Shown piece by piece: positions 1-3,000 of a DNA stretch of 64,000 bases. Made by a program: the position numbers. Positions within the stretch are counted from its first letter, which is position 1. Each line of letters opens with the position of its first letter. The stretch lies in assembly GCF_044324785.1 (NCBI RefSeq), contig NZ_CP172128.1, one strand, 5' to 3'. This DNA comes from Escherichia coli. GTDB taxonomy: Bacteria > Pseudomonadota > Gammaproteobacteria > Enterobacterales > Enterobacteriaceae.

Positions 1-3000
1 TTAACGCTGGAAAATATCAGAAAACTGAATGGCGGCTGGCAGTCTGTACCGAAGGATATTTTTACTCAGGTTGTACCACAAAGTCGCTTTAGTGGGCATC
101 GAATGGATATGCATCCGGTCAGTGATCATGAATGGCACAGAATGAGAACAGGGGCTGGCCCACAGGGGGCAATTAAGCGGGAGATTTTCTCTGACAAAGA
201 GAGTCTGTGGGGATATGCAGTCAGCCATTGTGCCCGTGATATTCAGTACATGATCTCTGAAGGGCGCTTTAGCTGGCAGAACTGCCATGAACTGTTTGCC
301 CGCAGTGGACTGATGTTACAGAAACTGCATCATGGTCTTGTGATTGTGGATGCGTTTAATCATGACCAGACACCGGTTAAAGCCAGCAGCATTCATCCGG
401 ATTTGACTTTGTCCAGAGCAGAGCCGCAGGCCGGGCCATTTGAAATTGCAGCGGCGGATATTTTCGATCGGGTGAAGCCTGAAAGCCGTTATAACCCTGA
501 TATGGCTGTCAGTGACAGTAAGGAACCCGGGTTTAAACGGGATCCTGAATTGCGCCGCCGTCGTCGTGAAACCCGTGCAGCTGCGCGGGAAGATTTACGT
601 GCGCGTTACCTTGCATGGAAGGAGCACTGGCGTAAACCCGATTTACGTTACGGCGAACGGTTACGGGAAGTTCATGCTGCCTGCCGCCGGCGCAAGGCGC
701 ATATCCGCGTACAGTTCAGGGATCCGCAAGTGCGTAAGCTGCATTACCATATTGCGGAAGTGCAGCGAATGCAGGCGCTGATCAGGCTGAAGGAAAGCGT
801 CAGGGAAGAGCGACTGTCGCTGATGGCGGAAGGTAAGTGGTACCCGCTGTCTTACAGGCAGTGGGTGGAGCAGATGGCGGTTCAGGGGGATTCTGCTGCT
901 GTATCTCAGTTACGTGGATGGAATTATCGCGACAGAAGGAATGATGAGGTGCTTTTAACCACGCCTCAACGCTGTGTGGTTCTTTGTGAACCAGGCTCCA
1001 CCCCGATTCACAGGGATATCGGTGGCATGGTGGCGACTTTGCAGCGTAATGGCAGTGTGCGTTTCCGTGATGCGACAACAGGAGAGTACGTCTGTACAGA
1101 TTATGGTGATCGCGTTGTTTTCAGCAACAGTGCCGATAACAAAACACTGAAGAAAAGGATGGTCAGGGTGTCCAGTGTGCTTTTTGCAAGGGATCCCCGA
1201 ATGGGGTTTGAGCCGGAAGGTCAGGATGCACAATTTAACCGTATGTTTGCTGATATGGTTGCGTGGAAAAACGTGCAGCGGGATGAGCGTAAGGGGCACT
1301 ACAGGATAAGTCGTTCTGATGTTGATCAACTGAGGGTCAGTAGTGAAAAACGTTTTCGTGATTATCTTAAAGGGCGTGATACTGAATCACACACTTACCA
1401 TCATGCAACGGATGAAAATAAGTGGGAGCCGCCATCACCGGGGATGTAAAAATCATGTAGACAGGGTGATTAAATCACCGTAATGTGTCCTCGTTGTGTA
1501 TACATTATGGGGGAGATATGCGAACACAGGTGACACTGCAAAAATGGGGCAACAGTATTGCTCTCCGGTTAACCGGAAATCTGAAAACCGTGCCGGGTTT
1601 TTCGGCAGGAGATGTGGTTGATGTGGAAATCAGTGAGAAAGGATTGATCGTGGAAAAACCGGTGAGACCTCGTCTTACAGAGGCTGTATTGCTTGCGGGG
1701 CTGACGCCATTTTCCGCGCATGCAGATGAAGCTGCCACTCTTCTTGATAAGGAGAGTGAGTTCTGATGTTTGTTCCAAAGCGTGGTGATATTTGCTGGCT
1801 TGATTTTGAACCCCAAAAAGGAAAAGAAATTGGCAAATATCGTCCGGCATTAATCCTGTCCCATGAGCAATATAATCGTTTAACAGGGCTTGTCATATGC
1901 TGCCCTGTCAGTACGAGTATCCGGGGCGCTCCAACAGAGGTTCCTGTTACTAATCTCGATGCACCAAGTGTGGTGGCCACAACGCTCATACAGACACTTG
2001 ACTGGCGGCAAAGGCAAGTGCGTTTAATTACGGAAGCAGAAGAGGGCGTATTTGATGAGGTGCTTGAGAGAGTGATCACTCTGATTGGTGGTGAACATTT
2101 ACTGAAGTGAAGGAGCCTGTTTAAGATTCTGTGTAAATGCCTTTCTCAGAAGTGACCGTCCAGGCGGTCACCGAACTCGATAATAAAGCGGCTCATTGCC
2201 ATTCGCCAGTCCTTCAACGGCATCGTCCATTTCTGGGACGCAGACTGGATTGCCAGCCACACCACTTTTTTCACCGAGTCGTCTGTCGGGAACACTTTAC
2301 GCTTTTTGATCGCATGGCGGATCACGCTGTTTAGCGACTCGATGGCATTCGTCGTATAGATCACTTTGAACCGCCCCGGAAATCCTGGAGACTAAACTTC
2401 CTGAGAAAGATGTAAACAGGATGACTAAAAATACTCGTTTTTCCCCCGAAGTCCGTCAACGGGCAGTTCGTATGGTTCTGGAAAGCCAGGGCGAATATGA
2501 CTCACAATGGGCGGCAATTTGTTCCATTGCTCCAAAGATTGGCTGTACGCCAGAGACCCTGCGTGTCTGGGTTCGCCAGCATGAGCGGGATACCGGGGGC
2601 GGTGATGGTGGGCTCACCACCGCTGAACGTCAGCGTCTGAAAGAGCTGGAACGCGAAAATCGTGAACTGCGCCGCAGTAACGATATCCTTCGCCAGGCTT
2701 CCGCTTATTTTGCGAAGGCGGAGTTCGACCGCCTCTGGAAAAAATAATGCCACTGCTGGATAAGCTGCGTGAGCTGCAGTGAGCTGCATATTGCCCCGTC
2801 AACGTATTACCACTGTCAGCAACAGCAGCATCATCCTGATAAACGCAGCGCCCGTGCGCAGCGTGATGACTGGCTGAAGAAAGAGATACAGCGCGTATAC
2901 GATGAAAATCACCAGGTGTACGGTGTGCGTAAAGTCTGGCGTCAGTTGTTACGGGAAGGTATCAGAGTGGCCAGATGCACTGTGACACGTCTTATGGCGG

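Follow-up and report, generated by a model that had tools for sequence, protein, structure and literature searches.

The question posed by this locus is how a short piece of the insertion sequence IS1414 came to stand directly behind a plasmid toxin gene, inverted with respect to a full IS1414 copy further along the same DNA. The stretch that we analysed (64,000 nucleotides of Escherichia coli DNA, hereafter the window) is part of a conjugative plasmid (IncK2 / I-complex) associated with poultry, on which a nest of insertion sequences lies between the relaxase/mazEF region and trbC. The original prediction had offered three possible origins for the arrangement, namely the remnant of a composite structure, an IS-mediated inversion, or a deletion.

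The last backbone gene before the nest is a mazF/pemK-family toxin gene (1766..2110, + strand, from the ORF list, with PemK/MazF annotation in identical records). Its TGA stop codon occupies 2108-2110, and the IS1414 fragment begins 2 nt beyond. A repeat search of the window returned an inverted repeat with arms at 2113-2368 and 10904-11159, 256 nt long and 100% complementary. The assignment of 2113-2366 to the last 254 bp of IS1414 is thus correct, with 256 of 256 positions matching the downstream copy. The length of the fragment can be given as 254-256 bp, since the TG at its end doubles as the beginning of the IS629 terminal repeat, TGAACCGCCCC. The 5' start of the fragment, GAGCCTGTTTAAGATTCTGTGTAAATGCCT, corresponds, as reverse complement, to the IRR, the right end of the full copy, and differs from that copy's left end, which reads GAGCCTGTACATAGATTTGTGTAATTGCCT.

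The fragment lies on the minus strand and contains one complete terminal inverted repeat (2113-2142, with a TGTAAA motif at 2132-2137), followed by the last 72 codons of a transposase ORF (2146-2364, minus strand), which match only the final 46 positions (332-377) of the Pfam profile PF00872 for Mutator-type transposases. PGAP labels it 'transposase, incomplete, missing N-terminus', so that it already stands in RefSeq as a partial pseudogene. Comparison with IS1414 itself, the astA/EAST1-carrying member of the IS256 family in E. coli, shows the same terminal repeat, beginning GAGCCTGT and including the TGTAAA motif, and a residual ORF corresponding to the C-terminus of the Mutator-type transposase. 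In contrast to an IS1414 element of ~1.3 kb with both ends and an intact PF00872 transposase, however, the fragment has the IRR alone, stops at the IS629 terminus and contains neither a transposase nor astA; it is a remnant rather than an insertion sequence. Judged from its sequence, 2113-2366 is a non-functional end remnant of a second IS1414 copy. Decayed IS1414 copies have been reported as common in a recent survey (PMC12585946).

The full-length copy (1314 bp, 9846..11159) lies on the + strand, in the orientation opposite to the fragment as had been proposed, and 10904-11159 forms the right, reverse-complementary arm of the inverted repeat. Beyond these two, the 64-kb window contains no further IS1414 sequence. 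RefSeq names the full copy 'IS256-like element IS1414 family transposase', a Pfam profile search matches it to PF00872 with E=1e-119, and four annotated, independent copies of IS1414 match it at 98.9-99.2% identity. The inverted IS1414 sequences do bracket IS629, IS100, an ORF-free stretch and IS2, as originally described, but not astA (EAST1), which is annotated at 10633-10746 and so sits inside the full IS1414. The transposase frame (9918-11126) is interrupted on translation by TAA at codon 150 (10365-10367), which PGAP records as an 'internal stop'. This codon is GAA in intact IS1414 copies and in the rearranged relatives L003, L004, L005 and L020, with TAA present only in the sub-lineage that resembles the window. 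A working transposase was therefore probably available in cis when the unit arrived, and, as far as the codon comparison can tell, the full IS1414 was probably functional at that time and acquired its nonsense codon later, within the window-like sub-lineage.

The decisive feature was overlooked in the earlier reading. The 9,047-bp block 2113-11159, taken as a whole, is flanked by an 8-bp direct duplication, AAGTGAAG, whose left copy (2105..2112) contains the mazF stop codon and whose right copy (11160..11167) lies directly outside the IRR of the full copy. Both outer termini of the block are outward-facing IS1414 right ends in inverted orientation. The duplication surrounds the unit and not the fragment alone, and the full IS1414 considered by itself has no target duplication (flanks cagcggaa / aagtgaag). 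Comparison with related plasmids lacking the nest, which had been suggested as a check, defines the empty site: in pRM10042-1 (L002) and pA16EC0070-1 (L007) it reads ttactgAAGTGAAGctaagc, with AAGTGAAG present once only. The mazF-IRR junction, on the other hand, is common to all ten plasmids with IS1414 at this site that we compared (L001, L003-L006, L019-L022 and the window), whatever their interior, which makes the outer ends ancestral.

Elements of the IS256 family move by copy-out/paste-in, generate 8-bp duplications and have TGTAAA as a subterminal motif; either of the terminal repeats can serve their transposase as the donor end (PMC7780238). For IS1414 in particular, perfect 8-bp duplications surround two of four independent full-length chromosomal copies (ATTTTTTG in L013 and CTTTGAGA in L015), so that the 8-bp rule for this element has as its basis two clean examples together with the known behaviour of the family. 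Since the duplication has IS1414's own length and both outer termini are IRR, a single IS1414 transposition is the most likely origin. We put a probability of roughly 60% on this reading, in which one transposition by IS1414, through two IRR ends, brought the 9,047-bp unit into the mazF-trbC spacer and left the AAGTGAAG duplication behind.

Viewed in this way, the locus has what is expected of a compound transposon: two outward ends of one insertion sequence, and a duplication of the length proper to that insertion sequence around the whole unit, at a target that is single-copy in the empty site. The suggestion that it is the remnant of a composite structure is accordingly supported. Tn4001 is a compound transposon with inverted IS256-family copies, and the present block resembles it, two identical outward IS ends enclosing cargo and an 8-bp duplication surrounding the whole. 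It differs from the Tn4001 type in that one flanking copy is only 254 bp long, the cargo consists of IS elements and non-coding DNA with no selectable gene, the block is known at one site, and the resident transposase is now a pseudogene.

The course of events that we envisage is as follows. The unit would have acted as a compound transposon with inverted IS copies, and copy-out/paste-in would have placed it in the spacer between mazF and trbC of a conjugative plasmid (IncK2 / I-complex). At the IS629 junction the left copy would have lost its inner ~1,060 bp, whether prior to that insertion or subsequently. Decay in place would then have followed, with IS100 and IS2 as further insertions of earlier or later date, a nonsense codon arising in the full IS1414 of the window's sub-lineage, and IS629-bounded inversions and deletions occurring in sister plasmids.

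Inside the block, the fragment is followed by an IS629-like element of the IS3 family (1289 bp, 2367..3655, + strand), a frameshifted pseudogene (PGAP, 'IS3 family transposase, frameshifted') with inverted repeats at 2367-2391 and 3631-3655; the fragment does therefore end at an IS629-like left terminus. Non-IS cargo occupies 3656..4142 and is found in 8 PLSDB records, all of one lineage, with only weak partial similarities elsewhere. IS100 (IS21 family, 1954 bp, 4143..6096, minus strand, istA/istB) is delimited by its inverted repeats and flanks, and CACTT stands as a perfect 5-bp duplication on either side (4138-4142 and 6097-6101), which identifies the element as a simple insertion into the cargo. 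Contrary to the earlier statement, then, one inner element, IS100, does have a matching target duplication; for IS629, IS2 and the full IS1414 taken alone the statement stands.

An ORF-poor stretch of cargo (6097..8064) comes next and also occurs, bounded by IS629, in other I-complex plasmids (L003-L006, L008 and L009). It is followed by IS2 (1331 bp, 8065..9395, + strand), which has its inverted repeats and no target duplication (flanks ctgtg / ttatt), and which, on comparison of the junctions, replaces 11 bp, TCAGAGTTTTG, still present in relatives without the IS2 insertion. A different IS2 copy (96% identical) lies ~70 bp further right in L003, L004 and L006, with a near-duplication, CTCTT / CTATT. 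The last piece of cargo (9396..9845) contains an 81-codon ORF (9586-9831) and abuts the left end of the full IS1414, a junction confined to 12 records, all from this one lineage. The DNA around this ORF is 85-87% identical to a region of small Rop-type plasmids with a hypothetical gene (L016; L018 is unannotated there).

We considered a captured small plasmid as the origin of the cargo and rejected it, as the inner edges resemble different small plasmids and are adjacent in none. The non-IS cargo is a patchwork for which the searches gave no donor. The backbone of L008 and L009, another of the I-complex, has an IS629-bounded part of the cargo inverted relative to the window, in the interval from trbC to the relaxase gene; IS1414 is missing there, and of IS100 just the final 55 bp persist, next to IS629. 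Because these plasmids hold only part of the cargo, the window has the most complete version of the interior.

The junction between IS1414 and IS629 bears on how the left copy came to be truncated. No target duplication surrounds IS629 (flanks ctt / tat), and what follows it on the right is unrelated cargo, so simple insertion does not account for the junction, where the left IS1414 has lost ~1,060 bp. Of the original suggestions, deletion thus gains support at this point: IS629 lacks a duplication and the remainder of the left IS1414 is missing precisely at the junction. The identical junction, at the same nucleotide, occurs in the pO157-like STEC virulence plasmids pCFSAN004179G (L023, NZ_CP012501.1, 11923-13487) and pN96-1 (L024, 2869-4432), where a block made up of the 254-bp IS1414 end and IS629 lies between partition genes and a YopT-type gene, with etp type II secretion genes and ehx nearby. 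The DNA outside both termini of that block is unrelated to the flanks in the window, the rest of the unit is absent, and there is no partner IS1414 within 12 kb of the junction. Against the window, the fragment and the initial ~350 bp of IS629 are ~98-99% identical, after which the value falls to ~93%.

Since the same junction exists in these plasmids, truncation may predate arrival. It may be a shared older mosaic, with the truncation preceding arrival, or the same-site event may have happened twice; the choice affects only the order of events and leaves the main conclusion as it is. The left end may likewise never have been a full IS copy in the present plasmid. An intact IS1414::IS629 precursor, sought through the reciprocal half-junction, was found in 0 of 5,426 complete E. 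coli genomes. As a separate observation, right-end IS1414 remnants of other lengths adjoin IS629/IS3411-type elements in many E. coli chromosomes (621 bp in L011); match spans suggest that still longer ones exist, and the pairing with IS629/IS3411 types recurs.

The presence of the pre-formed junction elsewhere gives some substance to a stepwise assembly, in which a block consisting of the 254-bp IS1414 end and IS629 and a separate full IS1414 would have arrived independently, by recombination or insertion, the 8-bp repeat being incidental. In its favour, the identical junction stands amid unrelated flanks in L023 and L024, at the ~98-99% identity given above. Two independent arrivals, however, would not produce an exact duplication of IS1414 length, placed precisely at both IS1414 termini and single-copy in relatives. 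Moreover, the pO157-like fragment has neither of the private markers of the arms in the window and its relatives, namely a 1-bp deletion and the G at 11038. We regard stepwise assembly as unlikely.

These markers also have a bearing on the relationship between the two arms. The private 1-bp deletion is common to both arms and is absent from the four independent IS1414 copies, and the private G at 11038 is found in nine relatives, either in both arms or in the single arm present (L005 and L022). The variants that the arms have in common make them sister or homogenised copies. In the window, positions 11038 and 2234 (the complementary base) correspond to A in both arms, and the independent IS1414 copies also have A. 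The contrast between A/A in the window and G in the relatives is suggestive of a concerted change by gene conversion, or else reflects a read-polishing artefact in a 256-bp repeat.

Such exchange between the arms is the foundation of a second alternative, namely that a single IS1414 inserted and that an inverted copy of its right end was subsequently placed next to mazF, as an inverted duplication or gene conversion in situ through recombination between inverted IS629/IS1414 arms. In pCh101 (L004, 3113-4621 and 8463-9971) and pCFSAN083829_2 (L006, 3113-4641 and 6312-7840) the inverted arms consist of a 220-bp IS1414 end plus IS629, and each plasmid has the same 35-bp junction deletion on both of its arms; in L006 the arms also have identical mismatch profiles against the window over 1.5 kb. 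This pattern suggests, at the level of sequence comparison, that the arms of L004 and L006 were homogenised by arm-to-arm copying, and together with the private variants common to both arms, and with the A/A of the window at 11038 where nine relatives have G wherever the arm is present, it is the evidence in favour of copying in place. A single insertion, however, would leave an IRL beside one copy of the duplication, and replacing that IRL by an inverted IRR exactly at the terminus lacks outer homology, because the 8-bp duplication is direct and not inverted. The A/A versus G/G pattern, for its part, could be an artefact of read polishing in the 256-bp repeat. We therefore consider copying in place improbable as the origin of the fragment.

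Inversion is the remaining part of the original prediction. A single IS1414 insertion followed by inversion would place IRL beside one of the duplication copies and so cannot give the observed picture; more generally, inversion cannot yield a direct duplication outside two identical ends, which excludes insertion plus inversion as the origin. A related possibility is that the interior of 8.5 kb is an active switch, flipped when the inverted repeats of 254 bp undergo homologous recombination with each other. Such a length suffices for RecA-dependent exchange, and interiors do occur in opposite orientations among relatives. We searched for the junction expected from recombination between the IS1414 arms (mazF followed by IS1414 sequence past the truncation point) and found it, at a threshold of at least 80% query coverage, in 0 of 72,556 plasmids (PLSDB) and 0 of 5,426 complete E. 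coli genomes. The inversions in relatives are instead bounded by 1.3-kb inverted IS629 copies and not by the IS1414 arms alone. An IS-mediated inversion between the IS1414 arms is consequently unsupported, and an active switch is highly improbable.

The rearrangements themselves vary from one sister plasmid to the next. In pLH50-c-A, pCh101 and pEGY2 the interior is inverted and parts of it are deleted, while pCFSAN083829_2 keeps the orientation of the window with a larger deletion. An extra IS629-like element is present in pEF5-18-41_2 (L020, 12901-14217), inverted and inside the full IS1414 at the equivalent of window position 10135-10137; insertions of this sort are the kind of step that would set up IS629-bounded inversions. 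A group II intron lies within IS629 in pEF5-18-41_2 and pTB-nb2 (L020 and L021, ~3640-5900).

Returning to the single transposition of the whole unit, which we favour, we looked for the unit at a second target site and did not find it in PLSDB or among complete E. coli genomes, where the mazF-IRR and cargo-IRL junctions and the 3656-4142 cargo are confined to one plasmid lineage and one site. As the unit is known at one target site only, we infer its mobility as a unit from the duplication alone. Searches for a donor with two full inverted IS1414 copies found none, and in those for a donor of the unit neither the cargo-IS1414 junction nor the 3656-4142 cargo turned up outside this lineage, a sensitive search giving just partial matches of 74-86%. 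Our literature search found no paper describing an IS1414-bounded compound transposon or the present nest.

Two intact IS1414 right-end repeats remain. It is conceivable, though unlikely, that the 9-kb block can on this account still be moved as a compound transposon, with astA on board, by any intact IS1414 in the host acting in trans. Were it so, it would be the first IS1414-bounded compound transposon, and would offer a route by which EAST1 could spread together with adjacent DNA.

More immediately, the proposed history would explain the presence of astA and IS debris between the relaxase/mazEF region and trbC in the poultry-associated IncK2 lineage, and the mazF-IS1414 junction with its AAGTGAAG duplication provides a clean marker for that lineage. 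It also implies that as little as 254 bp of an IS1414 end can have been enough for the terminus of a transposon. Beyond such plasmid bookkeeping the importance of the locus is small, IS remnants, compound transposons and IS-driven rearrangements all being textbook phenomena. Like the IS nests of large conjugative plasmids in general, the block has several IS families inserted in or beside one another, some target duplications lost, and adjacent deletions and inversions that differ between sister plasmids, with no essential difference from them; it is an ordinary IS nest, a typical example and not a new system.

A second variable spot lies just to the right of the nest, where 11202-11270 forms a perfect palindrome with a 31-nt stem. 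Here a 59-bp insert (11207-11265) replaces ~200 bp of backbone that is present in pRM10042-1, and in pA16EC0070-1 a cytosine methyltransferase / restriction endonuclease pair enlarges this interval to ~3 kb.
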